Below are positions 1 through 29,920 of a DNA stretch of 32,000 bases, in pieces. Position 1 is the stretch's first letter; every line of letters begins with the position of its first letter. A model generated the notes under the pieces. That model saw nothing but the letters and a program-made list of their open reading frames with translations, was not told where the DNA came from and did no database searches. The stretch is from Clostridia bacterium (GTDB taxonomy: Bacteria; Bacillota; Clostridia; TANB77; RGIG9151), in assembly GCA_017934955.1 (NCBI GenBank), contig JAGBIO010000004.1, positions 1-32,000 of the forward strand. Reading direction: 5' to 3'. A program made the position numbers and the translations under genes.

Positions 1-260
1 CAGCATTTATGCTGTCCTGCTTTCTGCCTTTCCTGTGGACAGCATAGTAGTCAAAACTTCCCAATCACTTCGTTCTTGGAGTTTTTTTACACAGGACGTA
101 CAAGCCATTCACTTCGTTCATGGTGTTACGTCCGCGAATGCTGTCCCTACAGTGTTCGTGCCTTTTCTATAAATTTAAGTCTGAGCAGTAACAAAACAAT
201 GATTACAAGTCAGAATATATATCGGGACGTCGAGGACGCCGTCCCCTACGATGATTGTAC
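1..260. repeat. REP-like cluster: partial hairpin 1-17, split hairpin 37-45/136-146, GC-rich variant 225-244, plus TIR-like modules
   Basis: Contains cagcatttatgctgtcc, then ggacagcat[90 nt]gaatgctgtccctaca, then ttttctataaatttaagtctgagcagtaac, then ttacaagtcagaatatat, then cgggacgtcgaggacgccgtcccctac. Confidence 0.9.
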
Positions 261-273
261 CATTTTGGCACTT

Positions 274-678
274 TTATCCTATTTCAATCATAACTTGTCC
301 CGGATTTACCGAATCGCCTTCTTTTACCAAAACATTGGTAACCACACCTGCTTCCGGTGCCACAATTTCATTTTCCATCTTCATTGCTTCCAAAATCAGC
401 AAAACATCATGCTTTCCAACGCTGTCTCCCACTTTTGTTTTGAGTTTCCAAATATTTCCCGGCATCGGTGCCGTTACTTTTATTGCACCGGCTGTTGGCT
501 TCGGTGTCTCTGCTACCGTAACTTTCTCCGCTTGTTTCGGAGGTTGCGGCTGTGCAACTTCTTGTTTTACTGCCGAAGTCACTACAGATGCTTCCTGCAC
601 TGAAAACTCTTTAACCTCTCTTACCGCCACATCGTACTCCGTTCCGTTTACCTTCACCTTAAAGAACTTTTCCATCAT
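274..678 (-). CDS. Biotin carboxyl carrier (biotinyl/lipoyl-domain) subunit of a biotin-dependent acyl-CoA decarboxylase/carboxylase
   Basis: Track ORF 274..690. Has the C-terminal EAMKMENEI biotinyl-lysine motif and a Pro/Ala-rich linker (QPQPPKQAEK...PKPTAG). The ATG at 678 has GGAGG 5 nt upstream, so it is preferred over 690. Follows a carboxyltransferase gene, as in mmdA-(D/E)-C type operons. Confidence 0.8.
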   Translation of the reverse strand: MMEKFFKVKVNGTEYDVAVREVKEFSVQEASVVTSAVKQEVAQPQPPKQAEKVTVAETPKPTAGAIKVTAPMPGNIWKLKTKVGDSVGKHDVLLILEAMKMENEIVAPEAGVVTNVLVKEGDSVNPGQVMIEIG

Positions 679-690
679 CCCGACCTCCAT

Positions 691-870
691 CTACATCAAG
701 TTATTCTGTCTTGCTTGAAAATTCCAAATTGGAACATTTACTTTATCTCGTAACAATCTCGGTAATTCCGCTGTTTCTCCCGAGGCAGAAAGCATCTCTT
801 GAATCGCCGCAACAATTACCGCAACGACCTCTTCATCATGACATTCCGTCAAAATCTCAATTTCCTTCAT
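691..870 (-). CDS. Small 59-aa protein, possibly an OadG/MmdE-like small subunit of the decarboxylase complex
   Basis: Not in the track (below size cutoff). My translation is MKEIEILTECHDEEVVAVIVAAIQEMLSASGETAELPRLLRDKVNVPIWNFQARQNNLM, from ATG at 870 to TAG at 691-693. It exactly fills the gap between the carboxyltransferase and the biotin carrier. The EEVVAVIVAAI segment resembles the conserved part of OadG-family small subunits, but there is no clear TM helix. Confidence 0.45.
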   Translation of the reverse strand: MKEIEILTECHDEEVVAVIVAAIQEMLSASGETAELPRLLRDKVNVPIWNFQARQNNLM

Positions 871-883
871 TTCACTTCACCCA

Positions 884-2221
884 CTAAATGACATTTCCAT
901 GTTTTTTATTCGGTTTCTCAAACCTCTTACTGCTATATAAATCCAACGCCCGAATCACCTGCGCACGCAACATCGCCTCTTCAACAACTACATCTGCAAA
1001 CAGCTCCCTCGCCGCATTCTCGGTCGTTCCCCACTTTTCACTATACTCTCTTGCATAATTTTCCCGCATTTGAATCGGATTTTCCGCCTCGGTAATTTCT
1101 TTATCGTATAAAACCGTTGCAACCGCTTGCGGATCCATAATTGCAATATTGGCCCCTTTCACCGCAATTGTAATATCCGGCTTTGTGCCTAACACCAATA
1201 ACGCTGAACCATACGCTTTTTTCAAAACCACATTTACCTTCGGAACGCTCGCCATGCAATACGCATAAATCAGCTTCGACGCACTTCGAAGCAATCCGCC
1301 TCGCTCCTCCTCCGCATCTGCCCGGAAACTCTTTCCGTCAATAAAGGTAACTAACGGCAAATTAAAGGAATCACAAATTCTTACAAAACGGCAAATTTTC
1401 TCAATATCCTTCTGCGAAATTCGCTCCTCACGTAAAGAAACAATTCCGCAAGCTCTTCCGCCAACCCGTCCCAAACCGGTAACGCTATCGGCAAAAGCTG
1501 CATTTACCTCAAAAAAAGAATCCTCATCACACAAACACAATAAATCCTGCCGAATCTCTCCAACAGAGACAAACGCTTTTTCTTCTTGACACGCATACAT
1601 CGCAGTATCGCTCAAATGGTTTTCCGGAAGATAACTTAATAGTGTGCGAACCTTTCCGGCACACTCGTTAAAATCCCGACAAACGACATCACAAATCCCG
1701 CTTACATCATGGTGCATTTTTGCACCACCAATCTCGCTTAACTGCACTGTTTTTCCGGTTTCTGCCATAATCACCTGCGGACTATTTAAAAACATACAGC
1801 TTTCTTCCAACATAAACACAAAATCTCCAAACGCTGCCATATAAGCCGCTGCACCGGCACATTCCATTGTCACAATTGAAATCATCGGTACCACGCCGCT
1901 TAATTTTGCAAACCACTCCAACACTTGATGAATCCCTGAAACCGCTTTCATGCCTTCGGAAATCTTGGTTCCTGCCGAATCAAACAATCCAACCACAGGA
2001 ACGCCCGTCTTATACGCATTTTCCAATAACTTACAAAGTTTTCGGCAATTTGCTTCGCTTAATGCGCCGGAACAACAAGAAGAGTCCTGCGAAAAAATAT
2101 ATACCGGTCGAGAAGAAATCGCCGCATAACCGCAAACAATCCCCGATTCCTCCTCCGGATTCGTTTCCGCAAAACTCTTTTCATCCACCAAATTCAAAAT
2201 ATATTCTCTCGCCTTTGTCAT
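884..2221 (-). CDS. Acyl-CoA carboxyltransferase subunit (methylmalonyl-CoA decarboxylase alpha / propionyl-CoA carboxylase beta family)
   Basis: Track ORF 884..2287. Carboxyl-transferase-like sequence throughout (GGARACGIV..., two-domain layout). The first 22 codons of the track ORF run into a REP hairpin at 2264-2283. The ATG at 2221 (MTKAREYILN...) has GGAG upstream. Confidence 0.8.
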   Translation of the reverse strand: MTKAREYILNLVDEKSFAETNPEEESGIVCGYAAISSRPVYIFSQDSSCCSGALSEANCRKLCKLLENAYKTGVPVVGLFDSAGTKISEGMKAVSGIHQVLEWFAKLSGVVPMISIVTMECAGAAAYMAAFGDFVFMLEESCMFLNSPQVIMAETGKTVQLSEIGGAKMHHDVSGICDVVCRDFNECAGKVRTLLSYLPENHLSDTAMYACQEEKAFVSVGEIRQDLLCLCDEDSFFEVNAAFADSVTGLGRVGGRACGIVSLREERISQKDIEKICRFVRICDSFNLPLVTFIDGKSFRADAEEERGGLLRSASKLIYAYCMASVPKVNVVLKKAYGSALLVLGTKPDITIAVKGANIAIMDPQAVATVLYDKEITEAENPIQMRENYAREYSEKWGTTENAARELFADVVVEEAMLRAQVIRALDLYSSKRFEKPNKKHGNVI

Positions 2222-2260
2222 TTGTAAACACTCCTTTACGAGCAAGCGTTTTGCCCATTC

Positions 2261-2371
2261 TGCGGACAGCATGAATGCTGTCCACACAATATTTGTGCCT
2301 CTTTCTTTCTATGCTGTCCACACAATATCTGTGCCTCTATCTTTCTGTACGGACAGCATTTATGCTGTCCA
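2261..2371. repeat. REP-like cluster (hairpins 2264-2283 and 2351-2370, half copy 2311-2319) with a 36-bp tandem duplication
   Basis: ggacagcatgaatgctgtcc and gtacggacagcatttatgctgtcc. Positions 2275-2310 and 2311-2346 are near-identical 36-mers. Confidence 0.9.
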
Positions 2372-2857: not shown

Positions 2858-2880
2858 ACAAATACTCCTTTTTTCAAATT

Positions 2881-3040
2881 CTGCCTATTGGGTGGACACA
2901 ATAAATTGTGTCCCTACACATTGTGCTTTTTTCATTATTTCTGCTTATTTGGCGGACACAATAAATTGTGTCCCTACACATTGTGCTTTTTTCATTATTT
3001 CTGCTTATTTAGTGGACACAATAAATTGTGTCCCTACCAT
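2881..3040. repeat. Tandem array of a 60-bp unit (2.7 copies), each carrying GGACACAATAAATTGTGTCC-CTACA
   Basis: Hairpins at 2894-2913, 2954-2973 and 3014-3033. The sequence between them is also identical (cattgtgcttttttcattatttctgcttattt). Confidence 0.95.
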
Positions 3041-3049
3041 CTCTACGTT

Positions 3050-3637
3050 TTATAGGTTCTGCTCATATATTTTTTTATACATTTCATACGCATTCATAAT
3101 TTTCTGCTCATATTTCTTCGTTTCATCAAACGGAATTTCATCCAACGTCTTCCCATCGCCACTCAAATCTTCCCGTTTCAGCCACCTCGATGCGTTAGTC
3201 GGACCCGCATTATACGCCGCAATTGCTACCTTTAAATCTCCGTCAAAGCGATTTAGTAAATATTTGAAGTACCATACTCCCATCATAATATTTTTTTCCG
3301 GATCAAACAAGTCCTCCTGCGAAAAATCTTTTATTCCCATCTTCTCCGCAATCCAACTTCCGGTATCCGGCGTAATCTGCATCAATCCGCACGCCCCTTT
3401 AGCGGAAACCGCATCTTTATCGTAATAGCTTTCTGCACGAATAATGGAATAGACCAAATATTTATCAATATCATTGCTTAACGCATATTTCTCTACAATT
3501 TCCTCATAGGATAACGGATAACGAATTCGATAAACGTCTCCTGACGCAAATTTCCAATAAACCGCTATCAAAAGTCCTATACAAAAAAGGACGAATAAAC
3601 TCTGTATTCCGTTATACGTTGTTTTTTTCTTTTTCAA
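3050..3637 (-). CDS. Membrane-anchored lytic transglycosylase (SLT domain)
   Basis: SLT motifs ES...AVSAKGACGLMQIT and AYNAGPTN, plus an N-terminal TM helix. The track start at 3703 lies inside REP 3695-3714. A TTG at 3637 is preceded by AGGAGG plus 6 nt and gives MKKKKTTYNG... Confidence 0.8.
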   Translation of the reverse strand: MKKKKTTYNGIQSLFVLFCIGLLIAVYWKFASGDVYRIRYPLSYEEIVEKYALSNDIDKYLVYSIIRAESYYDKDAVSAKGACGLMQITPDTGSWIAEKMGIKDFSQEDLFDPEKNIMMGVWYFKYLLNRFDGDLKVAIAAYNAGPTNASRWLKREDLSGDGKTLDEIPFDETKKYEQKIMNAYEMYKKIYEQNL

Positions 3638-3690
3638 CGCAATCCTCCTAACGTTGCTTTTTACGTGCGTTATTTGTGCCTCTTTTTTCC

Positions 3691-3838
3691 GTACGGACAG
3701 CATTTATGCTGTCCTAATTCTAAGTATCTGCCTATTCTGTGGACACAATAAATTGTGTCCCTACAATGTATCATTATAGAAAGATATAGTTTGAACAATA
3801 CCCTCTCTCTCCGTACGGACACAATTTATTGTGTCCTA
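3691..3838. repeat. REP-like cluster (hairpins 3695-3714, 3741-3760, 3817-3836)
   Basis: gtacGGACAGCATTTATGCTGTCC, then ctgcctattctgtGGACACAATAAATTGTGTCCctaca, then gtacGGACACAATTTATTGTGTCC. Confidence 0.95.
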
Positions 3839-6483: not shown

Positions 6484-6575
6484 TCTGCCTATTCTGTGGA
6501 CACAATGAATTGTGTCCCTACAACTTTTGTACTATCCCCGTACGGACAGCATTCATGCTGTCCGTGAATTGTGTC
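6484..6575. repeat. REP-like inverted doublet (6498-6517, 6544-6563) plus a fragment
   Basis: ctgcctattctgtGGACACAATGAATTGTGTCCctaca ... gtacGGACAGCATTCATGCTGTCC, followed by gtgaattgtgtc. Confidence 0.95.
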
Positions 6576-8679: not shown

Positions 8680-8750
8680 AAAAACTCCTCCGTTTATTCC
8701 GATTATTCTAACCATCAAACTATATCTTCCACAATGTTCGTTCAAACATT

Positions 8751-8853
8751 GTACGGACAGCATTTATGCTGTCCCTACACTAATTTAATTCTGAATAGTA
8801 ACGCGATTAGTTTACTATCCTACCCTTTTGTACGGACACAATTCATTGTGTCC
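8751..8853. repeat. REP-like cluster (8755-8774, 8834-8853) with a TIR-like module at 8779-8801
   Basis: gtacGGACAGCATTTATGCTGTCCctaca, then ctaatttaattctgaatagtaac, then gtacGGACACAATTCATTGTGTCC. Confidence 0.95.
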
Positions 8854-10301
8854 TAATCTTTATCCTTCAGCAATTTCTCAAATTGCAATTTTACCTGTTC
8901 CCGGTCGTCAAAGTGTATTGTTCCGGTATTCAAAATTTGATACGGTTCATGCCCTTTTCCTGCAATCACTACCACATCATCTTTTCGCGCAATTTCCAAT
9001 GCTTTATAAATCGCCTTTGCCCGATCCGGTTCCTTTAGATATTCTTTATCGAGGTTTTTCATCCCTTCTTCAATCTGTAAAATAATTTCCTCCGGATTTT
9101 CGCTTCTTGGATTATCCGAAGTTACAATCGCAATATCTGATAGTTCTGCCGCAATTTTTCCCATAATCGGACGCTTTGTTTTATCTCGATCTCCGCCACA
9201 ACCAAAAACGCAAATCACTCTTCCCTTCGCATATTCCCGTGTCGCCGTTAAGATGTTTTTCAAACTGTCCGGAGAATGCGCATAGTCTACCATTACGGTA
9301 AAATCCGCATTGATTTTTACCAACTCAGATCTTCCCGGCACGGTTAAGGTGTCAAATCCCCGCTGAATCTCCTCTCGAGAGCACCCTGCCTTGATTGCTA
9401 CTGCCATAGCAAGTAGCGCATTATATACCGAAAACTTCCCCGGAATTTTTACTCGAATAGAACCTAATTCTGAGGAAAAATCCACTGCATTTGCCGAAAT
9501 CACAAGATCTTTTGCCATAAGGTTTGCCTCTTTCTCAATCCCATAAGATTCTTTTACGCAAGTAATTTCCTGAAAAAGTCTCTTACCATATTCATCATCG
9601 GTATTTACTATCGCAAAATCACACATCGAAAACAACTTTTTCTTCGCTTGATAATAATTTTCAAAGTTCTTATGATAATCCATGTGGTCTTGACTCAAAT
9701 TGGAAAACGCCGCAATCGCAAAATGGCTGCCATATACTCGTTCTAAGTCCAACGCATGCGAAGAAACCTCCATCACAACCGCATCCACCTTCTCATCTGC
9801 CATTCGACGAAACATACGCTGTAACTCAATTGCTGCAGGAGTAGTATTTTCCGAAGTCTTTAAGATTTTATCTGCGATTCGGCATTCGATGGTTCCAATC
9901 AATCCAACCTTTTGACCCTTCGCTTCCAAAATCGATTTTATCATATAGGATGTTGTCGTTTTTCCTTTTGTTCCGGTAATTCCAATCAGCTGAAACTCTT
10001 TCGATGGATTTCGATAAAAATTACAAGCCATTTGCGCAATTGCCCGACGACCGCCATTTATCTGTACAAACCGAACTTCCGGTTTCATTACTGCTTCCTT
10101 CTGTGTAATTACAATCTTTGCCCCTTGTTTTATTGCCTCATCGATATATTGGTGACCGTCAAATTTCGTACCCTCCAAACAAACAAAAGCACACCCGTTT
10201 GCAATATCCCTCGAATCACTCGTTAGATAAGAAATCTCTTCTGTTAAGTCAGTATTTTTATTCACGATTTCAATTCCATTTAAAAGTTCATTCAGTTGCA
10301 T
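8853..10301 (-). CDS. murE: UDP-MurNAc-L-Ala-D-Glu:meso-diaminopimelate ligase
   Basis: Mur ligase P-loop GITGTKGKTTTS. The DNPR motif (TSDNPRSE) is typical of meso-DAP-adding MurE. AGGAGG RBS. The TAG stop overlaps the last base of REP 8834-8853. Confidence 0.93.
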   Translation of the reverse strand: MQLNELLNGIEIVNKNTDLTEEISYLTSDSRDIANGCAFVCLEGTKFDGHQYIDEAIKQGAKIVITQKEAVMKPEVRFVQINGGRRAIAQMACNFYRNPSKEFQLIGITGTKGKTTTSYMIKSILEAKGQKVGLIGTIECRIADKILKTSENTTPAAIELQRMFRRMADEKVDAVVMEVSSHALDLERVYGSHFAIAAFSNLSQDHMDYHKNFENYYQAKKKLFSMCDFAIVNTDDEYGKRLFQEITCVKESYGIEKEANLMAKDLVISANAVDFSSELGSIRVKIPGKFSVYNALLAMAVAIKAGCSREEIQRGFDTLTVPGRSELVKINADFTVMVDYAHSPDSLKNILTATREYAKGRVICVFGCGGDRDKTKRPIMGKIAAELSDIAIVTSDNPRSENPEEIILQIEEGMKNLDKEYLKEPDRAKAIYKALEIARKDDVVVIAGKGHEPYQILNTGTIHFDDREQVKLQFEKLLKDKD

Positions 10302-10320: not shown

Positions 10321-10464
10321 AATTACGGACACGATCTATGTCTCTTTTCCTCTGTACGGACAGCATTTATGCTGTCCTACATTCGTTCCTGCCTATTCTG
10401 TGGACAGCATGAATGCTGTCCCTACACACCTCTACGCCCCGTACGGACACAATTTATTGTGTCC
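10321..10464. repeat. REP-like cluster (degenerate copy 10327-10344; 10358-10377; 10402-10421; 10445-10464)
   Basis: A model inverted doublet: GTAC+palindrome (10354-10377), 24-nt spacer tacattcgttcctgcctattctgt, then palindrome+CTAC (10402-10425). Confidence 0.95.
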
Positions 10465-12700: not shown

Positions 12701-12853
12701 CGGTCGGGACGTCGAGGACGCCGTCCCCTACAAATATATCATTTATGCTGCCCTGCAGCTTTTCTACCTCTCTCCTTCTGTACGGACACAATTTATTGTG
12801 TCCCATAGCTTTTTTACCTCTCTCTTTCTGTACGGACAGCATTCATGCTGTCC
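12701..12853. repeat. REP-like cluster (GC-rich variant 12707-12726; half copy 12741-12753; 12784-12803; 12834-12853) with a ~50-bp direct repeat
   Basis: cgggacgtcgaggacgccgtcccctaca. Also agcttttctacctctctccttctgtacggaca and agcttttttacctctctctttctgtacggaca. Confidence 0.93.
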
Positions 12854-13435: not shown

Positions 13436-13462
13436 AAACAGGGGCACAAATGTTGCCCCCGT
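13436..13462 (-). terminator. GC-rich hairpin plus U-rich tail between rsmH and the ftsL-like gene (possible attenuator/terminator)
   Basis: The minus strand reads GGGGCA-acatttg-TGCCCC followed by TGTTTTGCAG, about 50 nt upstream of the ftsL-like start. Confidence 0.4.
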
Positions 13463-13532
13463 CTTCTCATTAGTAAATTGTATTTCATTTGTAATTTAAA
13501 ATTTTTATCTTTTGCAATGTTATTTTTTATCG

Positions 13533-13719
13533 TTTGTAATGAATTGTTACAATAGTGCATACATCCCGGACACAATGAATTGTGTCCCTACAGGATTGTG
13601 CCTTCTATAACCTTTTTCTCTTTTGTAGTTCATTGTTACGGTAGTGCATACATCCCGGACACAATGAATTGTGTCCCTACAGGATTGTGCTTTCTATAAC
13701 CTTTTTCTCTTTTGTGTTT
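13533..13719. repeat. Two tandem copies of an 89-bp unit, each with GGACACAATGAATTGTGTCC-CTACA
   Basis: Hairpins at 13568-13587 and 13657-13676. The flanks (attgttacNNtagtgcatacatccc and aggattgtgcYttctataacctttttctcttttgt) are repeated at an offset of 89. Confidence 0.93.
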
Positions 13720-13761
13720 TATTCTTTTTTCTTTCGTATATATGTAAAAGGGGGATGCCCT

Positions 13762-15165: not shown

Positions 15166-15320
15166 ACTTCTCACCTCTTTCGTGGAGTTTTATACCACTT
15201 TACTCCACTTCGAACCACTTGCAAGATAATATTAACCTTTTGCCTCCACTTTTGCAAGATGTAAGTATCAAAATAGGACTTTAGACCTACTTCATCTTTC
15301 TACATTGATTGCGCCATCAT

Positions 15321-15430
15321 TGTACGGACAGCATTCATGCTGTCCTGCTTTTCTGTCCTCACTGCGGACAGCATGAATGCTGTCCCTACAGCTTTTGTGC
15401 CTCCTCTATAAATTTAAGCGTGACAAGCAA
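15321..15430. repeat. REP-like inverted doublet (15326-15345, 15366-15385) plus a degenerate TIR-like tail
   Basis: tcattgtacGGACAGCATTCATGCTGTCC ... gcGGACAGCATGAATGCTGTCCctaca gcttttgtgcc tcctctataaatttaagcgtgac. Confidence 0.93.
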
Positions 15431-16024: not shown

Positions 16025-16057
16025 AAACGGCATACCGCTCGGTATGCCGTTTCTTTT
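16025..16057. terminator. Bidirectional rho-independent terminator between convergent murD and the 153-aa gene
   Basis: GGCATACC-gctc-GGTATGCC (16029-16048), flanked by aaaac on one side and gtttctttt on the other. Confidence 0.8.
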
Positions 16058-17312
16058 AACTCTTTATCCATTCTTTGAATCGTTCTCCACGTTCTTCAAA
16101 ATTCTTAAAATAGCCGTAGCTGGCTGCTGCCGGCGACAATAGACAAATTTTATCTTTCTGCGTAACTTTCTTCGCCACGTTTACAGCCTCTTCCAAATCC
16201 TCAACCAAGTAAACTCCGGAACAGTTTAAGCCTTTTGCAATTCGTTTTCCGGTCTCGTATGCCAAAATGATATTCCGTACTCTTCCTTCATTCAAAAAAG
16301 CAATTAAGGAATCATAATGAACGCCGCGATCCATACCGCCCAAAATCAAAGTATCCACTTCTTTTAGGCTTTCTACCGCAGCCATCGTTGCTTCCGGAAC
16401 GGTAGAGATGGAATCGTTATAGTAGCGAATTCCTTCATAAGTTCCTACAAACTCCAAACGATGCGGCAAGCCTTTAAAATCGCCTACTGCTTTTTCCCAT
16501 ACCTCTTTAGGAATTCCCAATAATTTCGCTACCGCTACTGCCGCAGAAATGTTGTTTTGATTATGTTTTCCCAACAAGTGACTCGGTATAGCAATCGGAA
16601 ACGGAAAGGCTATCTTCTTGCCTTTTGCATAGCTTTCCACATACTTTACCGTTAATTCATTCTCGGCATTATATACCACAAAATCTTCCGCAGATTGATG
16701 TCGAAAAATATTTACTTTGGAAAGCTGATATTCTTCATAGGATTCATAATGGTCCAAATGTTCCTCAAACAAGTTCAATAAAACCCCAATATGCGGTGAT
16801 ACCACTATTTTTTCCAATTGATGGGAAGACATCTCGCAGACCAAAACCGTCTCATCTGTTATTTCTTCCAAACACTCGAATATCGGGATTCCGATATTTC
16901 CGACAAGTCTTGTATTCACCTTCGCTTCCTGTAAAATGGCATAAATTAAGGAAGATGTCGTACTTTTCCCTTTTGTGCCGGTAATTCCGATCATATTTTT
17001 TCGATAAAAATTCAAAACCAACTCTGTCTGAGAAGTAACTTTTTCAAAATCGACTTTTCCTTTTAACTCCTTAAAAGAAATTCCGGGACTTTTTATCACG
17101 ACATCAAAATCATTAAGTCCTTCACAATAATCCGTGCCGTAATATACCTTTTCCGGTACTTCTGCCTGTCTTTCATCTGCAATTGCCAATTCTTTATAAT
17201 TCACATACTTTTTCACGAAATGATAAGTCGCTTTTCCTTCACGCCCGAAGCCTAAAATTACAATAGACTTTCCGTCAAGCGCCTTCTTTATTTCCTGTAT
17301 CAGTTTCGTCAT
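16056..17312 (-). CDS. murD: UDP-N-acetylmuramoyl-L-alanine:glutamate ligase (MurD family; possibly an L-Glu-adding MurD2 type)
   Basis: Mur ligase P-loop GITGTKGKSTTSS with MurD-like length and domain order. ATG 17312 (MTKLIQEIKK) has GGAGG upstream, and the track start lies in REP 17349-17368. Located outside the usual mraY-murD-ftsW position. Confidence 0.88.
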   Translation of the reverse strand: MTKLIQEIKKALDGKSIVILGFGREGKATYHFVKKYVNYKELAIADERQAEVPEKVYYGTDYCEGLNDFDVVIKSPGISFKELKGKVDFEKVTSQTELVLNFYRKNMIGITGTKGKSTTSSLIYAILQEAKVNTRLVGNIGIPIFECLEEITDETVLVCEMSSHQLEKIVVSPHIGVLLNLFEEHLDHYESYEEYQLSKVNIFRHQSAEDFVVYNAENELTVKYVESYAKGKKIAFPFPIAIPSHLLGKHNQNNISAAVAVAKLLGIPKEVWEKAVGDFKGLPHRLEFVGTYEGIRYYNDSISTVPEATMAAVESLKEVDTLILGGMDRGVHYDSLIAFLNEGRVRNIILAYETGKRIAKGLNCSGVYLVEDLEEAVNVAKKVTQKDKICLLSPAAASYGYFKNFEERGERFKEWIKS

Positions 17313-17344: not shown

Positions 17345-17555
17345 CTGCGGACACAAATTATTGTGTCCTAATTCTACCGTCTGCCTATTCTGTGGACAGC
17401 ATAAATGCTGTCCCTACAATGTTTGTGCTATCATTGTAGGGACACAATTTATTGTGTCCTAATTCTATCGTCTGCCTATTCTGTGGACACAATAAATTGT
17501 GTCCCTACAGTGTTTGTGCCTTTTCTATAAATTTGAGTCTGACCTGTAACAATGA
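17345..17555. repeat. Two tandem ~91-bp REP-doublet units (hairpins 17349-17368, 17394-17413, 17440-17459, 17485-17504) plus a TIR-like tail
   Basis: The units at 17349-17439 and 17440-17530 align base for base, except that the second hairpin core is GCAT/ATGC in one and CAAT/ATTG in the other. Confidence 0.95.
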
Positions 17556-17565: not shown

Positions 17566-18816
17566 TTATTTTTGCCATAATTCAGGATATTTTTCAATCA
17601 AAATTGGTAAATTTTCTTGATATTTTTCGGCAATCATTCGAATTGCTTCCTTCACTTCCGCCCTTGTCCCGACACACTCGAACGGTTTTGTTTTATCGAT
17701 TCCCGCAAGTTCCCGATAATACTTTTCCAACTCCAAATCATTTAATAAATTTCTTCCGAAAATCGTTGTCATTTCTTCTTCCGACAAAAAAGGTGCCAAA
17801 ATAATATACACAAATAAGCACTTTGAACACTTCCCACACCATTCGTTTTTTCCGCCGACGCTTCCGCGATTACAACTTCGAAAAATTTTATGATACTGCT
17901 TATACTCCGCAAACTGTCTCGCTATATCGATTTCCCGCATACCGCGTAGCAAGCTGAAATATTTCATAAAAGGATTAACGTATCGCTCGGTATATTCCAC
18001 AAAATCCAATTCAAATTCCAACGACTTGGAATATTGGTGGTTTGCTCCTGTTTCCTCATCGGTACTCTCATTAGCACTGCTTTCATTGGACAAAACAATA
18101 TACTGTTTTCCTGCTAATAATGCACAAAACATCCCTAAAAATGCCAAAGACGCTGAAAAAGGAGTATGTCCGTTTAAATATCCTTCTTGATTTAACTGCA
18201 ATAACAGAGGATCGATTTTCCGCATTACAATCACGGAATCTTCCGCGTTATATCCCGCAACCGTTACCGTATCCAACGTCGCCCCACGCGGATTTACTAT
18301 AAAGCAAGTATTATGCGCTTTTTCCTTCTTCAATAGCTCCAAGGTAACCGCCGAATCTTTTCCGCCTCCTACCGGAATCAAATTTCCTTCTACGTTTCCG
18401 ATTTTCGATTTCGAATAAATCGTGTCTGTCGCATTTTCAAAGACAACAAAATCCTCATAAGAAATCTCGATATGATTCAAAAAACGAAATTCGCCCAATC
18501 CGTTATAAAAAAGTTTCTTCCAAAAATCCATTTGTTCTTCTCGCAACGCCCCTGCTTTTAATATAACCTTCTTAGGACAAGCCGCTTTATAATAACTGAT
18601 TAATTCACAAAGTCCCAAATGGAACAAAAATACATCTTTATCTTCTAAATTCTCCGGTCGAAAAAAATCTCTCTTTAAGATACTTAACCGATGCACAAAA
18701 TGAAACTCTCCTAAAGAATAGTAATAATTTATATCATAAGAATCGTCTGACTCGGAACATGTAAATTTATCGTAGGAAACAGCGTCAAACTTCTCGCGCA
18801 ATTCAGAAAATGTCAT
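17566..18816 (-). CDS. PP-loop-type ATP pyrophosphatase-like protein with C-terminal Cys cluster; candidate MurL-like epimerase
   Basis: Has GGGKDS (a variant of the SGGxDS PP-loop) and WCGKCSKC plus an upstream CNRG Cys, as in QueC-like PP-loop enzymes. 416 aa, immediately upstream of murD in transcription order. The function is inferred from context only. Confidence 0.8.
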   Translation of the reverse strand: MTFSELREKFDAVSYDKFTCSESDDSYDINYYYSLGEFHFVHRLSILKRDFFRPENLEDKDVFLFHLGLCELISYYKAACPKKVILKAGALREEQMDFWKKLFYNGLGEFRFLNHIEISYEDFVVFENATDTIYSKSKIGNVEGNLIPVGGGKDSAVTLELLKKEKAHNTCFIVNPRGATLDTVTVAGYNAEDSVIVMRKIDPLLLQLNQEGYLNGHTPFSASLAFLGMFCALLAGKQYIVLSNESSANESTDEETGANHQYSKSLEFELDFVEYTERYVNPFMKYFSLLRGMREIDIARQFAEYKQYHKIFRSCNRGSVGGKNEWCGKCSKCLFVYIILAPFLSEEEMTTIFGRNLLNDLELEKYYRELAGIDKTKPFECVGTRAEVKEAIRMIAEKYQENLPILIEKYPELWQK

Positions 18817-18834: not shown

Positions 18835-19839
18835 TTATATTCTCTTCTTCGAACGCCGATAGCCGTGTAATAACATTAACAACAAAAAGACTCCAAACAC
18901 GCCCATTAAAGTATAAAGTTTCGCCACTAAAGTCGAAAACCCTACCAAACTCAGTAAATAGGAAATCACGCAAATCACAAAAAAATGCTTCACATTCTGT
19001 CCTACCCGCGTGTAAATCCCATATAGCAAACTAATGGCTGTCGTCAGTACCGCAAAGAAGAAAGAAATAAAATAAAGCCACGTCTGCGAAGGGCCGGTTA
19101 AAGCTGCAATCGGTATCTCAGCTCCTTGTATTTTACCATAATTCATAAAAAGTGCAAAGTATATTATACTTCCAAAAATAAAAATGGTAATCGCCGAAAT
19201 CACAGAACCTTTTTTCATACTGCTTTTGTCTCTTGCATTAGCCCCTAACGCTGCCAATACCGAAATCGACAGCACCAAATTATACGACGCGTATAAAACG
19301 GCGGAAAGGATTACCGGAATCGCAGAAATATTCCTAATCTCCGTAATATGGGTGATTTGCGTAAATTCGGTTCCCGCTAAAGATTTTAAAGATATGTAGG
19401 AAGTTAATAAAATTAAAACCGGTACCGCTACAGAACTTAGCTTCATCACCCCGTTGATTCCAAAAATCACAATTCCGAAACTAATCAGTGCCATCATCAG
19501 ACTGCCGAGAGCAAAAGGAATTTGAAAAAACTGTTCACACAATGCCCCAAATCCGGAAAACATCGTGCTTGCCGTTGCAATAAAAAAGCAACAAATCAAA
19601 TAATCAAAAAACGGTTTCCATTTACAACGAAAGGCATAGCCTAAAATTTTATCATAGGAATCCGCCTTACTGCTATATCCCATATTCATAATCTTTTCTC
19701 CAAGCAACATAAATAAAAAGGCAACCAAGATGAAACCAAGATAGCCGACAATCCCGTAATCCACAAAAAAACGTCTGATTTCTTGACCCGACGCAAATCC
19801 GGCACCGATTATCGCGCCGATAAAGGTAAAAGCAATCAT
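18835..19839 (-). CDS. YkvI-family polytopic membrane protein (putative transporter)
   Basis: N-terminal GAIIGAGFASGQEI motif, as I recall it from YkvI-like proteins, and about 10 hydrophobic helices. GGAGGTGA RBS. Lies 18 nt upstream of the next gene, so probably an operon. Confidence 0.75.
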   Translation of the reverse strand: MIAFTFIGAIIGAGFASGQEIRRFFVDYGIVGYLGFILVAFLFMLLGEKIMNMGYSSKADSYDKILGYAFRCKWKPFFDYLICCFFIATASTMFSGFGALCEQFFQIPFALGSLMMALISFGIVIFGINGVMKLSSVAVPVLILLTSYISLKSLAGTEFTQITHITEIRNISAIPVILSAVLYASYNLVLSISVLAALGANARDKSSMKKGSVISAITIFIFGSIIYFALFMNYGKIQGAEIPIAALTGPSQTWLYFISFFFAVLTTAISLLYGIYTRVGQNVKHFFVICVISYLLSLVGFSTLVAKLYTLMGVFGVFLLLMLLHGYRRSKKRI

Positions 19840-20097: not shown

Positions 20098-22731
20098 TTA
20101 ATTTGCTCGATCATTTAAATATGTATTATATAGTTCCTGCACAAATTCTTTATTATGACGATAACCCGTAAGGATTGCTCCTGACATAGATTCATTCTGA
20201 GCTACCTGCTTCTTAACAATATATGCAGAAGTTTTGGTGACATTCAGCGGATCTCGTACTGTAGGATCTGTACTATAAACTCCCACTTTTACACCCTGAT
20301 TTACTAAATTCATTACCTCTGGCTCGTTATACGCTGCATCCATAAAAGTTACCTCAAAATTAATCTGTTTCGTATCTCCACTTGAAGTGGTAATTTCTGC
20401 TCCGTGCAAATTTTTCGTCATATAAACTGCAGGAACACCACCGCCACTAAAAGCATCTATATAAATATCCGAACCAATCTTACCACTGGCAATTTGTTCT
20501 TTTAAATATTGGGTAATGGAATCGGTAGCACCTTCCCCCCATCCGTTTAGCCCGTAAGTCTTCTTATTACTAGCAATAGAAACGCAGATTACATTCATAT
20601 TAGCTAAAGCTGGTACATCTTCTATAAATGCCATTGCTTTAGAAAGATCACGTTTTTCTTCATCGCCAGGAAACATAAGAACTGTTTTGGCATTCGGTCC
20701 AATGTAGTGTAGAGCAATATTTGCACCGCCATAATTGAAAGTTTCAAATACTAATTTTTCAAATTCCGACGAAACACCTTGACAATTTGTGCATACCAGA
20801 GCACCACCGGCATCTTCATACATTTTTTTTGTAACAAGTGTTTCGTTGCAAAGAACGCAAAGACTTTCATGAGCCAAGCAGAATAGCGGTGAATGTACAA
20901 TAGATTCACTATCTTCCGTTTGAGTTGTGTTTTGACTTCTCCTAAAAGTTCTGCAATCCACTGCCCTGCACTTATGTTCTGCACAGTAATACGAATATCT
21001 TCCTATATCCTTGGCTCCCGTATCCCTTACATCAGGGGTTGTTGCTGTTACCATAGGTATCGTACTCACTCCTACTATTGCCTCTTCGCACATACTGCAA
21101 GTATGCGGATAACAATATAAATTTGCGCCTTCGCCCTTTTCTCTGCATTTCAGTCCTTCTCTTGTAGGACCACTATTTGTGGGATCCACTTCCCAATTCC
21201 ACACAAAACGACAAGCGTGTTCTGCGCAATATTTTGAGAAATATACTAAAATATCACCGTCATCATCTCCGCAAGCTACCTTGCCACCACATATTTCGCA
21301 TTTAGAACAGCCTTGGCATAAGTAAAAGTTTCCTTCGCTGAATCGATATTGATTCTTATTCGCTTGATCCGGCGAAATTTTGGAATTTATCACATCAAAT
21401 CGTTCTGCATCTATCTCATGTTGTTTAAAAATGTCGTTATATTCATCTGTTTTGATTCCCATTAATTTTCCTTTTTCTTTTTCCGCAAATACTGTATTTT
21501 CCAAATCTCCCAAGAATTCATTTTGTACATAATACTCTTTTGGTTCATAATTTTCTGCCACAACATCTATTTTTCCGTAATTTTCCCGAATTTCCGATAC
21601 AGCATCATCTAATTTTTCCCATGCCTCTTGTCTTGCTGTTATTGTCGCATTGCTATCTTCAATCTCTCTTCCGTACCGATCGGTTGTCGTTATCCGGATA
21701 CGATTTACAATATCATTAAAAATATCTTCTATAAACTTTTTTTTGTTATGTTCTGTTAATACATATAAGGCTTCGTTTTCTTTTTCCTCTGTATCTTGTG
21801 CATAGTACCCTGCCAAATTAAATGTATAAGTGAAATTTACGTTATATCCTATTGTCAATACGACTTTTTTTCCTTCGATTTCTAAATTCATTTGGTCTTG
21901 TGCTTCATGCGGATCTTCTCCCCAACATTTTTCGACTACCTTAAATTCTGCACTTCTTGCATCGTCATAAGCCGGAAATTCCCAATCCGCATATTGATTG
22001 ATATCCTCAGCTTCTGCATAAGTTTCCTCAACAAAATTTTCCGGTACTTTGGGGGCCGTACTTTCTGTCGAATTCGAATCTCCACCGGAAAAGTTTCCAG
22101 CAGAACTTCCACCGGAAGAGTTTCCAGCAGAACTTCCACCGGAAGAGTTTCCAGCAGAACTTCCACCGAAAGTTACCATCGAATCTTGTCCGTTCGCATT
22201 TTCTGATTCTCCGGTATATAAAAGTTTCCATTCATCATTTTCTCCAACACCTAAAATCAGATTTCCGCTTTTTTCATCTAAATTTTGCGTATTTAAAACA
22301 TAATATTCGCCGCTTTGTACTTCGGAATCAGTAATCACTACTTTTCTGTATAATGCTCTTAATTGATTAGTAATCGAAATCAGTTCATTTGCCTTTTTTT
22401 CAGCAGCTTCTTCTGACAGTTCCTCCACTTGCTTTTCAATTATTTTCATAACAGAGTCATCATCAAAATATTCTCCTACGATTTCACTGCTTGAGGCTTC
22501 CACAAACGGGGATAAATCAAATTGCACGCCGGTTTCTCCGGAACGGAAATTTATCGTTTTCTGTTCTTCTATCGTTAAAAGATTCTCTGCATTCACGTTA
22601 TTGATTTCATCTGCCGAATACCATTCGGCAGATACTTCCCCAATCGGATTTAACAATACTGTGCCAACGGCATAAGTAAAATTCGTTAAACAAAAACATG
22701 CCACTAAAAAATAGACAAATATTTTTTTCAT
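20098..22731 (-). CDS. Orphan 877-aa secreted protein: signal peptide, Gly/Ser repeat, Cys/His-rich module, C-terminal alpha/beta-hydrolase-like region
   Basis: Signal peptide MKKIFVYFLVACFCLTNFTYA, followed by (GGSSAGNSS)x3. Four [YF]C-x2-H-x1-3-C motifs plus several CxxC. The C-terminus has AFSGGG (a nucleophile-elbow-like motif), then FMDAAY and GYRHN. Terminator hairpin downstream. Confidence 0.85.
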   Translation of the reverse strand: MKKIFVYFLVACFCLTNFTYAVGTVLLNPIGEVSAEWYSADEINNVNAENLLTIEEQKTINFRSGETGVQFDLSPFVEASSSEIVGEYFDDDSVMKIIEKQVEELSEEAAEKKANELISITNQLRALYRKVVITDSEVQSGEYYVLNTQNLDEKSGNLILGVGENDEWKLLYTGESENANGQDSMVTFGGSSAGNSSGGSSAGNSSGGSSAGNFSGGDSNSTESTAPKVPENFVEETYAEAEDINQYADWEFPAYDDARSAEFKVVEKCWGEDPHEAQDQMNLEIEGKKVVLTIGYNVNFTYTFNLAGYYAQDTEEKENEALYVLTEHNKKKFIEDIFNDIVNRIRITTTDRYGREIEDSNATITARQEAWEKLDDAVSEIRENYGKIDVVAENYEPKEYYVQNEFLGDLENTVFAEKEKGKLMGIKTDEYNDIFKQHEIDAERFDVINSKISPDQANKNQYRFSEGNFYLCQGCSKCEICGGKVACGDDDGDILVYFSKYCAEHACRFVWNWEVDPTNSGPTREGLKCREKGEGANLYCYPHTCSMCEEAIVGVSTIPMVTATTPDVRDTGAKDIGRYSYYCAEHKCRAVDCRTFRRSQNTTQTEDSESIVHSPLFCLAHESLCVLCNETLVTKKMYEDAGGALVCTNCQGVSSEFEKLVFETFNYGGANIALHYIGPNAKTVLMFPGDEEKRDLSKAMAFIEDVPALANMNVICVSIASNKKTYGLNGWGEGATDSITQYLKEQIASGKIGSDIYIDAFSGGGVPAVYMTKNLHGAEITTSSGDTKQINFEVTFMDAAYNEPEVMNLVNQGVKVGVYSTDPTVRDPLNVTKTSAYIVKKQVAQNESMSGAILTGYRHNKEFVQELYNTYLNDRAN
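22082..22172. repeat. In-frame 27-bp tandem repeat (about 3.3 copies) inside the 877-aa gene
   Basis: ccaccggaaRagtttccagcagaactt at 22082, 22109 and 22136, plus a partial copy. Encodes GGSSAGNSS repeats on the minus strand. Confidence 0.9.
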
Positions 22732-22831: not shown

Positions 22832-23001
22832 GTTCAGACTATATTTCTCTACAATGTTTGCACAATCATTGTAGGGACACAATTTATGGTGTCCGGAAAA
22901 TAGGCGGAGTCCACAGAAAAGGCAGAAAAGCAGGACAGCATGAATGCTGTCCCTACAATAATGTCGCAATCATTGCAGGAGACGGCGTCCTCGACGTCCC
23001 G
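22832..23001. repeat. Composite REP-like cluster (22875-22894, 22933-22952, GC-rich variant in reverse orientation ~22975-23001)
   Basis: gttcagactatat..., then caatcattGTAGGGACACAATTTATGGTGTCC, then GGACAGCATGAATGCTGTCCctaca, then gcaggagacggcgtcctcgacgtcccg. Confidence 0.9.
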
Positions 23002-24540: not shown

Positions 24541-24719
24541 GGACAGCATGAATGCTGTCCCTACATTGGTTGTGTTGATTTATCTATCCAGGTGGACAGC
24601 ATGAATGCTGTCCCTACAATGCTTGTGTTGATTTATCTATCCAAGTGGACAGCATGAATGCTGTCCCTACATTGGTTGTATTTATTTCGCCATCCGTACG
24701 GACAGCATTTATGCTGTCC
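24541..24719. repeat. Three tandem 53-bp units (hairpins 24541-24560, 24594-24613, 24647-24666) plus an inverted copy at 24700-24719
   Basis: GGACAGCATGAATGCTGTCCctacaWtgSttgtgttgatttatctatccaRgt repeated three times, then gtacGGACAGCATTTATGCTGTCC. Confidence 0.95.
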
Positions 24720-24722
24720 ATC

Positions 24723-26582: not shown

Positions 26583-26758
26583 CTTTTTCTTCCCCCTTAT
26601 AAACATCTGTCACTATTCCTAATATCGAATCTAATTTCAAAAAACTTAATAGTTTTTTGAATATTTTTTTTATTTTTGCAAACAATTAAAATGTTAAGAA
26701 ACTCTACATAGTTACTATATCCTACCAAAATCTTATTGTCACTTTTTTAGGAGGAAAA

Positions 26759-28018: not shown

Positions 28019-28094
28019 TACGAATAAAAATTTATTATCTATTCTTTTTTCACTCTTCTTTATTCTTTAATGTTTTTATATAGGAGGCAATCAT

Positions 28095-29039
28095 ATGAAA
28101 AAAATGTTCTTCTTCACCCTTACTTTACTTCTCATTTACTACATCTTTACCCGGTCTCCCGCAAAAGAAAATCTTATTGCACATGTCAACAATGACAACA
28201 TCATCTATCTTACGCGTGCAAAAACACAAGATATCGTAGAACTCAATTTTGAAGATTATATTGCGGGAGTTGTTTACGCGGAAATGCCGGCAAGTTTTGA
28301 AGTTGAGGCGTTAAAAGCACAAGCCGTTGCGGCTCGTACATATACCATAAAAAAATTAGCTTCGGGAACACATATTTGCGATGATTCCACACATTGTCAA
28401 GCATGGAAGGAAGCGGATGAAAGCGAAGAATATAAAAAAGTAGCCCAAGCCGTCAAAAGCACCGATTCCGAAATTCTTACCTACTTAGGAGAAGCCATCA
28501 GTGCTTTCTTTCATTCAGCCAGCGGTGGGAAAACCGAAAACGTAAAAGACGTTTGGGGCGGAGAAGAAATTCCTTATCTTCTCTCGGTAGACAGTCCGAA
28601 CGAAAATACATTAATGTCTACCTTTTTTAGTGAACAAGAGATTTCTTATGCGGATTTTGCCAACAAAATCAATCATTATACCGGAAAGAAAACAGTTTCT
28701 TATGATTTATCTCAAACGAAAAATATCGCAAAATTCAAAAAAGAAATCAAAATTGTCAGCCGTACCGAAGGGGATCACGTAGAGTCCATAAACGTCTCCG
28801 GCACAACCTTCTCCGGTACGGAATTTCGCAATATTTTTGACTTGCGTTCTACGAATTTCACAATTACTTTAAAAGACAAAACAATTTTGATTCAAGTAAA
28901 AGGCTACGGACATGGCGTCGGCATGAGTCAATGGGGTGCCCAGGTAATGGCAAAGGCAGGAAAAGATTATCGGGAAATTCTCTATCATTATTATCCCAAT
29001 ACGCTATTGGAAAAACAAGCCTATCAAAAGAAAGCCTAA
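28095..29039 (+). CDS. spoIID: Stage II sporulation protein D (lytic transglycosylase)
   Basis: Signal/anchor sequence and SpoIID motifs (ALKAQAVAARTY, FHSASGGKTE, GHGVGMSQWGA). Shows the conserved murA-spoIID adjacency. AGGAGG RBS. Confidence 0.9.
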   Translation: MKKMFFFTLTLLLIYYIFTRSPAKENLIAHVNNDNIIYLTRAKTQDIVELNFEDYIAGVVYAEMPASFEVEALKAQAVAARTYTIKKLASGTHICDDSTHCQAWKEADESEEYKKVAQAVKSTDSEILTYLGEAISAFFHSASGGKTENVKDVWGGEEIPYLLSVDSPNENTLMSTFFSEQEISYADFANKINHYTGKKTVSYDLSQTKNIAKFKKEIKIVSRTEGDHVESINVSGTTFSGTEFRNIFDLRSTNFTITLKDKTILIQVKGYGHGVGMSQWGAQVMAKAGKDYREILYHYYPNTLLEKQAYQKKA

Positions 29040-29143
29040 ATACATAAGGGTCGTAAAAACACCTCAATTAAATTATATTTGTTGTATAAAAAAATTTAAT
29101 ATGGCTATACTCCCAATATACATAAAAAATGGGAGGAATTACT

Positions 29144-29776
29144 ATGAAAAAATTTTATATTTTAACTTTTGTTGGGATTGCTTTATTGCTTTTCGCCGTT
29201 ATGATCGGTGAAAGTGTGATTTCGAAAAATCAACAGACAAAACCGAATTTGCAGGAAATTCATCAAGTAGAACAGCAGCATCAAGTACAAACGGAATTAG
29301 AAATAACACAGGCAAATCAAACGAAAGTAACCGAAATCAAACCGATTCCGGAAGAAACGGAAAAGAAAAAAGAATTGCAATTTATGAAACCGGTTGAAGG
29401 CGAAATCGAAATGAACTACTCACCCGAAACATTAATTTATTCAAAAACACTCGGTGAATGGAAAGTTCACAACGGAATTGACATCAAAGCCGAAAGAGGA
29501 ACTGCCGTAAAAGCCGCTGAAGCCGGTAGAATCACAGATATCTCCGAAACTACCGATAAAGGGATTGAAATTACGATTTCTCACGCCGACGGCTACCAAA
29601 CCGTTTACTCGAACTTATCCACAAAGTCTATGGCAGCCCCAAATCAAGAGGTGGAAAAAGGACAAGTCATCAGTGGCGTCGGGAACACCGCCGCTTTTGA
29701 ATATTACGAGCCGGATCATTTACATTTCGAAGTCTATAAAGACGGAAAATTAGTTGATCCAAACAGTATTTTTTAG
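29144..29776 (+). CDS. Membrane-anchored M23/LytM peptidase, likely SpoIIQ-like
   Basis: TM anchor, Gln/Glu-rich linker and a LytM domain with HNGIDI (HxxxD) and HLHFEV (HxH). Position after spoIID matches clostridial spoIIQ. ATG 29144 (MKKFYIL) has GGGAGG upstream; the track starts at 29129. Confidence 0.8.
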   Translation: MKKFYILTFVGIALLLFAVMIGESVISKNQQTKPNLQEIHQVEQQHQVQTELEITQANQTKVTEIKPIPEETEKKKELQFMKPVEGEIEMNYSPETLIYSKTLGEWKVHNGIDIKAERGTAVKAAEAGRITDISETTDKGIEITISHADGYQTVYSNLSTKSMAAPNQEVEKGQVISGVGNTAAFEYYEPDHLHFEVYKDGKLVDPNSIF

Positions 29777-29785
29777 AAAAAAAGA

Positions 29786-29920
29786 GTTACAATTCAGACT
29801 ATAATCTTTCTATAATAATGGTACAATCATTGTAGGGACAGCATTTATGCTGTCCTGCTTTCTGCCTTTTCTGTGGACAGCATGAATGCTTTTCCTATAA
29901 ATTTAATTCTGAATTATAAC
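29786..29920. mobile_element. 135-bp MITE-like composite: terminal inverted repeats enclosing a REP doublet (29836-29855 and a degenerate copy 29875-29895)
   Basis: The left end is gttacaattcagactataa. The right end ttataaatttaattctgaattataac reverse-complements to gttataattcagaattaaattta. The interior is caatcattGTAGGGACAGCATTTATGCTGTCCtgctttctgccttttctgtGGACAGCATGAATGCTtttcc. Non-coding, between convergent genes. Confidence 0.6.

Follow-up and report, generated by a model that had tools for sequence, protein, structure and literature searches.

A dense family of GTAG- and GTAC-tagged extragenic palindromes among the cell-division genes of a Clostridia bacterium

We analyzed a 32-kb stretch of DNA (hereafter the window; positions 1 to 32,000 of contig JAGBIO010000004.1, assembly GCA_017934955.1) from a Clostridia bacterium, in which nearly every gap between the genes of the division and cell wall (dcw) cluster holds short palindromes of the repetitive extragenic palindrome (REP) type. 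The minus-strand genes of the window encode a carboxyltransferase, dCMP deaminase, an SLT transglycosylase, PolA, FtsW, MraY, MurE, a SpoVD-type penicillin-binding protein (PBP), an FtsL-like protein, RsmH, MraZ, a MurD2-like ligase with MurL, two unknown proteins, a GerE-type regulator, Gpr, and SleB, after which follow plus-strand genes for a MurA-like protein, SpoIID, and an M23 peptidase. The host organism is a sporeformer. The closest named homologues of its MurE are from Clostridia metagenome-assembled genomes (MAGs) at ~51% identity, and no NCBI protein exceeds 67% identity. The source samples of the sequence are metagenomes, and their naming suggests a ruminant-gut origin. The GC content of the window is ~40%, and the GC skew of the plus strand is negative throughout, which implies that the window lies in one replichore and that most of its genes are co-oriented with replication.

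The pattern GGACR-N10-YGTCC has 34 exact matches in the window, compared to 0.02 expected from dinucleotide-preserving shuffles. Allowing two substitutions gave 35 palindromes (~1.1 per kb), of which 30 have a perfect 9-bp stem, and further partial or degenerate copies at 1-19, 37-150 (split), 2310-2321, and 22975-23000 brought the total to ~38-39. An earlier note on this DNA, made from the letters alone, had claimed about 40 palindromes at more than one per kb in 14 intergenic clusters, with none in a credible coding sequence (CDS), and had proposed comparing intergenic with genic counts. These claims were borne out: there are exactly 14 clusters, all matches to the pattern in the window are intergenic, as are 35 of 35 palindromes, and intergenic DNA makes up 15% of the window (P ~3e-12 by cluster). 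For this placement, gene starts were adjusted from gene calls on two near-identical public contigs and from one orthologue comparison. An apparent overlap of the REP at 3695-3714 with the SLT open reading frame (ORF) was dropped because the orthologue places the start at a TTG near 3636, and the sole remaining contact with a CDS is the G of two TAG stop codons (MurE and PolA), which is common with a repeat. Gene callers put the starts of SLT (3703), MraY (8763), and the MurD-like gene (17354) inside REPs. The two REP-free stretches described before were found again at 17.5-22.9 and 24.7-29.8 kb. The same repeats recur in two ENA assemblies made independently and in one Logan contig, which implies that they are not an assembly artefact.

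Three forms of the palindrome occur, as described before. The two main cores are GGACAGCAT-NN-ATGCTGTCC and GGACACAAT-NN-ATTGTGTCC, and a GC-rich form, GGACGGCGTCCTCGACGTCC, is found at 225 and 12707 and, in degenerate form, near 22980. In a tag-oriented alignment, 29 of 29 units followed the consensus (GTAG/GTAC)-GGACA(GC/CA)AT-T(T/C)-AT(GC/TG)TGTCC, which defines a 24-nt REP unit in which a 4-nt tag precedes a stem of 9 bp with a TY loop of 2 nt. Paired cells make up 99.6% of the stems in this alignment. Two variable stem positions covary (G-C to C-G and C-G to A-U) in 25 cells; since there are only two subfamilies, this covariation represents one or two events that were amplified afterwards. 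A stem mismatch (G.A) is found only in the 26-mer of the GC-rich form, GTAGGGGACGGCGTCCTCGACGTCCC, which is perfect at 224-249 and 12706-12731, both on the minus strand.

The tags distinguish two kinds of unit. It had been claimed that GTAG or GTAC stands directly 5' of every copy, and this holds for most of the 35 palindromes: 18 carry GTAG, 11 carry GTAC, and one copy carries both. In the two intact GC-rich copies, by contrast, GTAG lies one base further out, and the REPs at 2264, 17349, and 29875 are without a proper tag, so that the totals including GC-rich and double-tagged copies are 21 GTAG, 12 GTAC, and three without a proper tag. The treatment of GTAC as a mere variant of GTAG did not hold. 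Fifteen GTAG units are on the minus strand and three on the plus strand, and they mostly have a 3' tail, ACAGAATAGGCAGA, placed just upstream of a ribosome-binding site. The 11 GTAC units and the double-tagged copy are on the plus strand only; read on the coding (minus) strand, GTAC units have the form GGAC..GTCC-GTAC followed by a purine-rich tract, and five of them start 0-3 nt past the stop codons of the genes for MurE, PolA, PBP, dCMP deaminase, and SleB. The association of tag with strand is significant (Fisher P = 1e-5; 4e-4 with arrays collapsed). Thus, we conclude that GTAC marks a distinct partner form and not an interchangeable variant of GTAG.

The units are combined in several arrangements. 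Head-head doublets have spacers of 19-26 nt with the consensus ACAGAAtAGGCAGA (e.g., 10358-10421), in agreement with the conserved spacer of ~24 nt reported earlier, and include the doublet at 15326-15385 upstream of mraZ and that at 22875 and 22933, which is accompanied by the degenerate GC-rich copy at 22975-23000 (plus strand, two mismatches; cluster 22875-23000). Tail-tail doublets have spacers of 23-67 nt; in the one at 6498-6563, in the FtsW/PolA gap, the GTAG unit with its ACAGAATAGGCAGA tail stands directly 5' of the PolA ribosome-binding site. The PolA/SLT gap (3695-3836, where the last base of the REP at 3817-3836 is common with the PolA TAG stop codon) and the PBP/MurE gap (10358-10464) each contain three REPs that alternate in orientation, first head-head and then tail-tail, and four strictly alternating REPs joined by conserved linkers form a run at 17349-17504 with a 91-bp period, resembling bacterial interspersed mosaic elements (BIMEs). 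Head-to-tail arrays have periods of 50, 53, 60, and 89 bp. On the minus strand, 2868-3037 holds three 60-bp units (GTAG-REPs at 2894, 2954, and 3014), compared to two in the otherwise identical contig L001, and 13524-13715 holds two 89-bp units (GTAG-REPs at 13568 and 13657), with an orthologous but interrupted REP at this site in the relative L105. The cluster at 12706-12853 combines the GC-rich 26-mer with head-to-tail 50-bp GTAC-REP units, two in the window and four in contigs L001 and L002, and that at 24541-24719 combines three 53-bp GTAG units with one GTAC REP, 3 nt from the SleB stop codon. Two further clusters are mixed: 2264-2370, in the carboxyltransferase/dCMP deaminase gap, comprises the untagged REP at 2264, a half-copy, and a GTAC REP at 2351 that sits 1 nt from the dCMP deaminase stop codon, and 8755-8853 comprises a "double-foot" REP (GTAC...CTAC) at 8755 and a GTAC REP at 8834-8853, whose last base is common with the MurE TAG stop codon. 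The full composite at 29775-29925 (minus strand) resembles a REPIN (a doublet of inverted REPs): outer inverted repeats, AATTCAGA..TATAG, surround a head-head pair (29836 and 29875), and the whole folds into a single long hairpin (z = -5.3). Head-head doublets are as common as singlets, tail-tail pairs, and head-to-tail arrays.

At the window edge, a truncated inverted REP at 1-19 (minus strand; full copy in contigs L129 and L001) is the partner of a minus-strand GTAG REP at 37-150 that is split in its loop, with the tag and 5' arm at 138-150, the 3' arm at 37-45, and a foreign insert of 92 nt at 46-137. This 92-nt element occupies exactly the 2-nt loop of a GCAT-type REP, and an inverted copy with 93% identity occupies the loop of a CAAT-type REP ~0.8 kb away (L129 12861-12951). 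It looks like a small element that targets REP loops, comparable to the insertion sequences reported to insert into REPs (PMC1525189).

REPs continue beyond the window. The left 9 kb (contig L129) contain ~12 more REPs, which implies that the family is not limited to the dcw cluster, together with one more GC-rich copy, a perfect 26-mer at L129 17360. The right 8.5 kb contain no REPs and are almost wholly coding. With these ~18 kb of flanks, ~50 kb of the organism's sequence were read in total; this DNA contains ~47 copies of the main type and four 26-mers, of which three are perfect and one is degenerate. The left flank also contains a second REP class, a GTAG-GGGCGAYTA...TCGCCC-CTAC doublet with an unrelated stem (L129 ~19110-19190), and a relative with 66% MurE identity has another GTAG palindrome with an unrelated stem, GTAG-GGAACGGTC-TT-GACCGTTCC-GTAG (L107 5304-5331); the clade thus has more than one REP class.

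We compared the window with two near-identical contigs and with four relatives, ranked by MurE identity (L107, 66%; L105, 79%; L106, 82%; L134, 85%, the closest). Over 20 kb, the near-identical contigs differ only in tandem copy number (2894-2953 and 12779). Gene order is kept in the relatives (66-85% MurE identity). In L107, L105, and L106, the spacers are 14-41 nt where the window has 118-192 nt; the clusters therefore occupy gaps between stop codon and ribosome-binding site that are intercistronic spacers of 14-41 nt in these relatives. A profile search of L105, L106, and L107 found no intact REP unit. L134 has decayed REP copies at orthologous sites flanking murE on both sides, including copies orthologous to those at 8755-8853, and L105 and L106 have weaker relics at the PBP-MurE junction. 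The L134 MurE ORF terminates within a REP (2196-2218), whose loop TAA is the stop codon. The window has TAG as the stop codon of both MurE (8853-8855) and PolA (3836-3838), with the G as the first base of a REP, and relatives use TAA. These shared stop codons imply that REP insertion remodelled the 3' ends of genes. Judged from these relatives, the intact REP population is specific to the lineage of the window. REPs are old in the clade, yet intact, homogeneous, and dense only in this lineage, which argues for continuing dissemination, homogenization, or selection. A scan of JGI metagenomes for REP doublets gave 17 loci, all from other organisms and with related cores (GGACACCAT and GGACAGAAT), and a scan of viral contigs for the window-specific REP with its tail gave no match.

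According to the earlier note, a conserved GTAG next to a palindrome defines the REPs that REP-associated tyrosine transposases (RAYTs) recognize. A scan of GTDB genomes with the tagged core matched at least 101 stretches from several phyla. The matches listed are from Chloroflexota, Bacteroidota, Clostridia/Oscillospiraceae, Ignavibacteria, and one cyanobacterium; among them, the tag is nearly always GTAG, often in the "double-foot" form GTAG...CTAC. Clustering of the ORFs around the matches listed revealed no recurrent small transposase family, and a RAYT was present in L048 only. This Clostridia MAG contains a 185-aa RAYT-like ORF (NHLH...YIDSNP) that matched only NF047646 (REP-associated tyrosine transposase) in NCBIfam, at E = 4.8e-19, below the equivalog cut-off. 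GTAGGGACACCATATATGGTGTCC is found on both sides of the ORF, and its stop codon lies within GTAG. A search with the L048 protein led to a large RAYT clade, one member of which (P0168) has 6467 homologues at E <= 1e-15 and whose named top matches are Oscillospiraceae and Clostridia MAGs.

Two peptides of this clade, VGDGVLDVP (around residue 40) and GTSRTPSPT (around residue 97), are encoded by the two strands of the 26-mer GTAGGGGACGGCGTCCTCGACGTCCC. We compared five RAYT genes of the clade (L125, L126, L127, L128, and L133), whose GC content ranges from 32% to 50%. Both in-frame inverted 26-mers are perfect in four of the five (L125 859-884 and 1029-1054; L127 10130-10155 and 10304-10329; L128 2722-2747 and 2890-2915; L133 526-551 and 708-733). 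The 26-mer of the window, including the copy at 224-249, is identical at 26 of 26 positions to both copies in these four genes and to one copy in L126 (187-212). Nucleotide identity among the RAYT genes is 93-100% within the REP blocks and 53-80% elsewhere, and the internal 26-mer, a pair of which brackets the HUH motif, is invariant at all codon positions. Such invariance amid divergent genes implies selection at the nucleotide level on the hairpin pair. The 26-mer is also dispersed extragenically in other genomes (e.g., in L143, where six copies lie within 4.3 kb). A profile of the clade had a sole match in the PDB, E. coli TnpAREP (4ER8; E = 1.5e-10), and phmmer with a single RAYT found no PDB match. 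Judged by its motifs (PNHIHL, IWQRSYHDH, and YID(E/T)NP) and its two in-frame REPs, the clade fits RAYT subclass 2.4 (PMC6006769).

Taken together, these results make it likely that the palindromes are REPs of the GTAG superfamily, arranged in REPIN- and BIME-like doublets and arrays, and that they are the non-coding partners of a RAYT (TnpAREP), a Y1 HUH transposase. The REP part of this reading, which the earlier note had also put forward, stands on the GTAG tags, the doublets, the strictly extragenic placement, and a density far above that of relatives. The RAYT part is supported indirectly, by sequence comparison: REPs with the core of the window flank the RAYT-like ORF of L048, and the 26-mer of the window is identical to that of the RAYT genes.

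Several observations weigh against this reading. No Y1 or RAYT ORF or remnant is present in the window, as had been noted before, or in the ~18 kb of flanks, and tblastn with 238 RAYT homologues against the window and flanks returned REP-encoded peptides only. In addition, the RAYT genes in L127, L128, and L133 have few or no REPs nearby, which implies that the enzyme alone does not entail a dense family. The E. coli enzyme TnpAREP binds and cleaves REPs only if the stem has a mismatch, a requirement known for this enzyme alone, and its binding also depends on an intact GTAG (PMC3333891). In the window, 30 of the 35 stems are perfectly paired, and one copy in three is tagged with GTAC. Direct RAYT substrates may thus exclude many copies and would possibly comprise only the 26-mer and the GTAG units. 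Furthermore, the strand bias of the tags is confounded with the direction of transcription, as almost all genes are on the minus strand, and the differences in tandem copy number between near-identical contigs need no transposase and could reflect assembly collapse. Candidates for a resident RAYT were rejected. An apparent N-terminal extension in the tblastn search was the C-terminus of a biotin carrier read through a stop codon; proteins picked by amino-acid composition and by the residues flanking the 26-mer (P0168, P0179, P0251, P0271, and P0262) all belong to other organisms, as do the RAYT genes of L125-L128 and L133.

If a RAYT does act on these repeats, the following course of events would account for the arrangement of the locus. 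A RAYT of the 26-mer clade, presumably encoded elsewhere in the genome, would bind GTAG and the hairpin in single-stranded DNA and would probably do so on the lagging-strand template of the replication fork, where cutting and rejoining would seed or renew REP or REPIN units. The minus strand is the leading-strand sequence and lagging-strand template, so that its excess of GTAG units would fit the preference of IS200/IS605-type elements (cited in PMC3333891). Clusters would then expand and contract by slippage or unequal recombination, and insertions into tight operons would survive only if placed after a stop codon and ahead of the next ribosome-binding site. The GCAT and CAAT stems would descend from the GC-rich REP inside the RAYT gene by compensatory G:C to A:T changes in an AT-rich host. 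A compensatory change from G:C to A:T at two positions, restored pairing at the G.A mismatch, and the addition of one pair lead from the 26-mer stem to the GCAT core, and we infer that this core may have been derived in this way. REPs transcribed within operons would form stable RNA hairpins that are not terminators and that probably influence how the mRNA decays and how translation of the upstream gene terminates. In E. coli, REPs placed up to 15 nt from a stop codon are reported to down-regulate translation (Liang, Rudd and Deutscher, 2015).

Three other explanations were considered. The absence of a RAYT from ~50 kb would also be expected if the REPs were orphans, derived from a RAYT-driven family whose RAYT is no longer active in the lineage, kept and multiplied solely by recombination, gene conversion, and slippage, and retained through host use as mRNA stabilizers, modulators of translation termination, or protein-binding sites. 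The polymorphism observed is of tandem copy number only, and REPtrons have been lost in many E. coli strains (PMC3733652). Likewise, the positions of five REPs 0-3 nt past stop codons and of others just 5' of ribosome-binding sites suggest position-dependent effects, and the folds are very stable as RNA (for the PBP-MurE spacer, -60 kcal/mol, z = -7). However, the copies in L134, L105, and L106 are decayed, and it would be difficult to account for the near-identity of those in the window over more than 14 loci if dissemination or homogenization were not continuing; in addition, the extragenic 26-mer is perfect at three sites in this organism and degenerate at one. We consider an orphan family rather unlikely.

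The composite at 29775-29925, with its imperfect outer inverted repeats and long-hairpin fold, raised the question of whether a composite of ~135 nt is the mobile unit, as in miniature inverted-repeat transposable elements moved by a classical DDE transposase. Yet most copies are single 24-nt units or doublets, outer inverted repeats are found in few composites only, and each unit shows the hallmark of REPs, being itself a palindrome tagged with GTAG on one side. No transposase is nearby, and no target-site duplications were seen on reading the clusters, where no systematic search for them was made; such an origin is very improbable. Slightly less probable still is that the palindromes are ordinary transcription signals, namely intrinsic terminators or attenuators between genes. 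They are stable intergenic hairpins, and some have T-rich tracts behind them on the plus strand, but none has a U-tract behind it in the sense (minus) orientation. Moreover, they lie inside a conserved operon whose spacers are 14-41 nt in relatives, the same sequence recurs at all sites in both orientations, and a search of Rfam with the repeats found no family match. A REP followed by (C/G)TACAAT also resembles a near-consensus sigma-70-type promoter, (T/A/G)GGACA-N16-TACAAT. Three such sites on the minus strand (8748-8775, 15319-15346, and 17433-17460) face mraY, mraZ, and the MurD-like gene, and two are on the plus strand (3740-3767 and 17393-17420). Overall, 55 promoter-like matches were found compared to 46 +/- 6 in shuffles, which is no excess.

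Small, abundant intergenic repeats are likewise known from another Bacillota genome, that of Streptococcus pneumoniae (BOX, RUP, and SPRITE), but these have no GTAG tag, another architecture, no known RAYT association, and much longer units. For REPs themselves, the E. coli K-12 genome (~4.6 Mb) offers a comparison of density. It contains 584 REPs (PMC3333891), or ~0.13 per kb, compared to ~1.1 per kb in the window. The REP/BIME system of E. coli with TnpAREP (PMC3333891; 4ER8) resembles that of the window in its extragenic, co-transcribed hairpins with a 5' GTAG, and E. coli BIMEs likewise alternate two REP forms through short conserved linkers and vary in tandem copy number between strains. 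By contrast, E. coli REPs are 30-40 nt long with an obligatory mismatch, while the stems of the window are AT-richer, 9 bp, and mostly perfect; in addition, the partner form here is GTAC-tagged and the host is a Clostridia-like sporeformer. The REPINs of Pseudomonas (Bertels and Rainey; PMC5581495) share the inverted doublets with a short spacer that form one long hairpin, and are a lineage-specific family with a single-copy domesticated transposase as the expected partner. The window differs from them in its many singlets and head-to-tail arrays, and the RAYT clade associated with it is subclass-2.4-like and not of groups 2 or 3, the only RAYT groups with highly abundant flanking 16-mers (PMC5581495).

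In unit anatomy, the repeats of the window resemble GTAG-1 to GTAG-24, the families of Di Nocera et al. (2013, PMC3733652), which have a one-sided unpaired GTAG, a stem of 6-13 bp, and a TY loop, form subfamilies with complementary stems, occur as head-head, tail-tail, and head-tail dimers and clusters, and lie between unidirectional genes. Such families typically have more than 100 copies across a genome (PMC3733652). GTAC, a change at the fourth position, is not among the tag variants listed in that study, and its main text contains neither "Firmicutes" nor "Clostridi". RAYTs of subclass 2.4, or Bertels group 4 (Quentin et al., 2018, PMC6006769), have the motifs NH[IFV]H, WQ, and YIxxNP and carry in-frame REPs within tnpAREP; "double-foot" GTAG...CTAC REPs occur with them, comparable to the REP at 8755 and to many GTDB matches. 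This subclass occurs in large numbers among Cyanobacteria and Bacteroidetes and is scattered elsewhere, whereas the RAYT clade described above is of very large size, has Clostridia and Oscillospiraceae MAGs as its named members, and bears a single invariant 26-mer at two fixed positions. The earlier view that REP/RAYT systems are characterized mainly in Proteobacteria understates their spread: GTAG REPs are reported in more than 80 species of eight phyla (PMC3733652), RAYTs of group 1 occur in Clostridia (PMC5581495), and the present clade alone yields 6467 homologues. A literature search on Firmicutes and Clostridia yielded neither a paper dedicated to REP/RAYT nor any described REP family, and none with ~1.1 copies per kb in a dcw operon. 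Distinctive here are the GTAC partner form locked to one strand, the identity with a transposase-internal REP, and the unusual density.

A more specific reading that joins these points is tentative, and we hold it at somewhat less than even odds: that an uncultured Clostridia lineage of the ruminant gut has an active REP/RAYT system, in which the family was seeded from the nucleotide-invariant REP pair inside a RAYT gene and then drifted toward AT-richer stems by compensatory changes, nearly every dcw intercistronic junction was colonized at more than one copy per kb, and the strand-locked GTAG (leading-strand sequence) and GTAC (other strand) forms reflect a directional single-strand mechanism. 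If true, this would give the first description of a dense BIME-like system for Bacillota and a natural case for how RAYT genes found REP families after horizontal transfer. The 26-mer, which is invariant in the RAYT gene and dispersed outside it, suggests a route by which a transferred RAYT could do so. The biology of REPs and RAYTs is known almost entirely from E. coli, Pseudomonas, and Stenotrophomonas, and a family in a Gram-positive sporeformer would widen the range of study; the decayed relics in sister lineages would provide a time series of invasion and decay. Hairpin clusters that abut the stop codons and ribosome-binding sites of dcw genes are likely to affect the expression of essential genes, and they also mislead gene callers.

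Other features of the region were recorded. Genes for the MurD-like ligase and MurL epimerase (16056-17312 and 17566-18816; PF26299/PF26298) lie directly upstream of mraZ, a pair that we take to define the alternative route of L-Glu ligation and epimerization known from Xanthomonas; here the pair is found in a Clostridia-like sporeformer. An 877-aa protein of unassigned function contains a 27-nt in-frame tandem repeat (22081-22172; 3.4 copies, 96% matches), and the ORF at 30754-31998 encodes the C-terminal portion of a protein of 2642 aa, preceded by an SLH-domain gene. Finally, the rsmH-ftsL spacer contains two motifs other than REPs (minus strand, ~13440-13475 and 13735-13761) that are kept in L105 and in the 66% relative L107: AAAGGGCATCCCCCTTTTACATATATAC directly after rsmH, and a hairpin, GACGGGGGCAACATTTGTGCCCCTGTTTTG, upstream of ftsL. 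These motifs may be a terminator, an attenuator, or a regulatory RNA.

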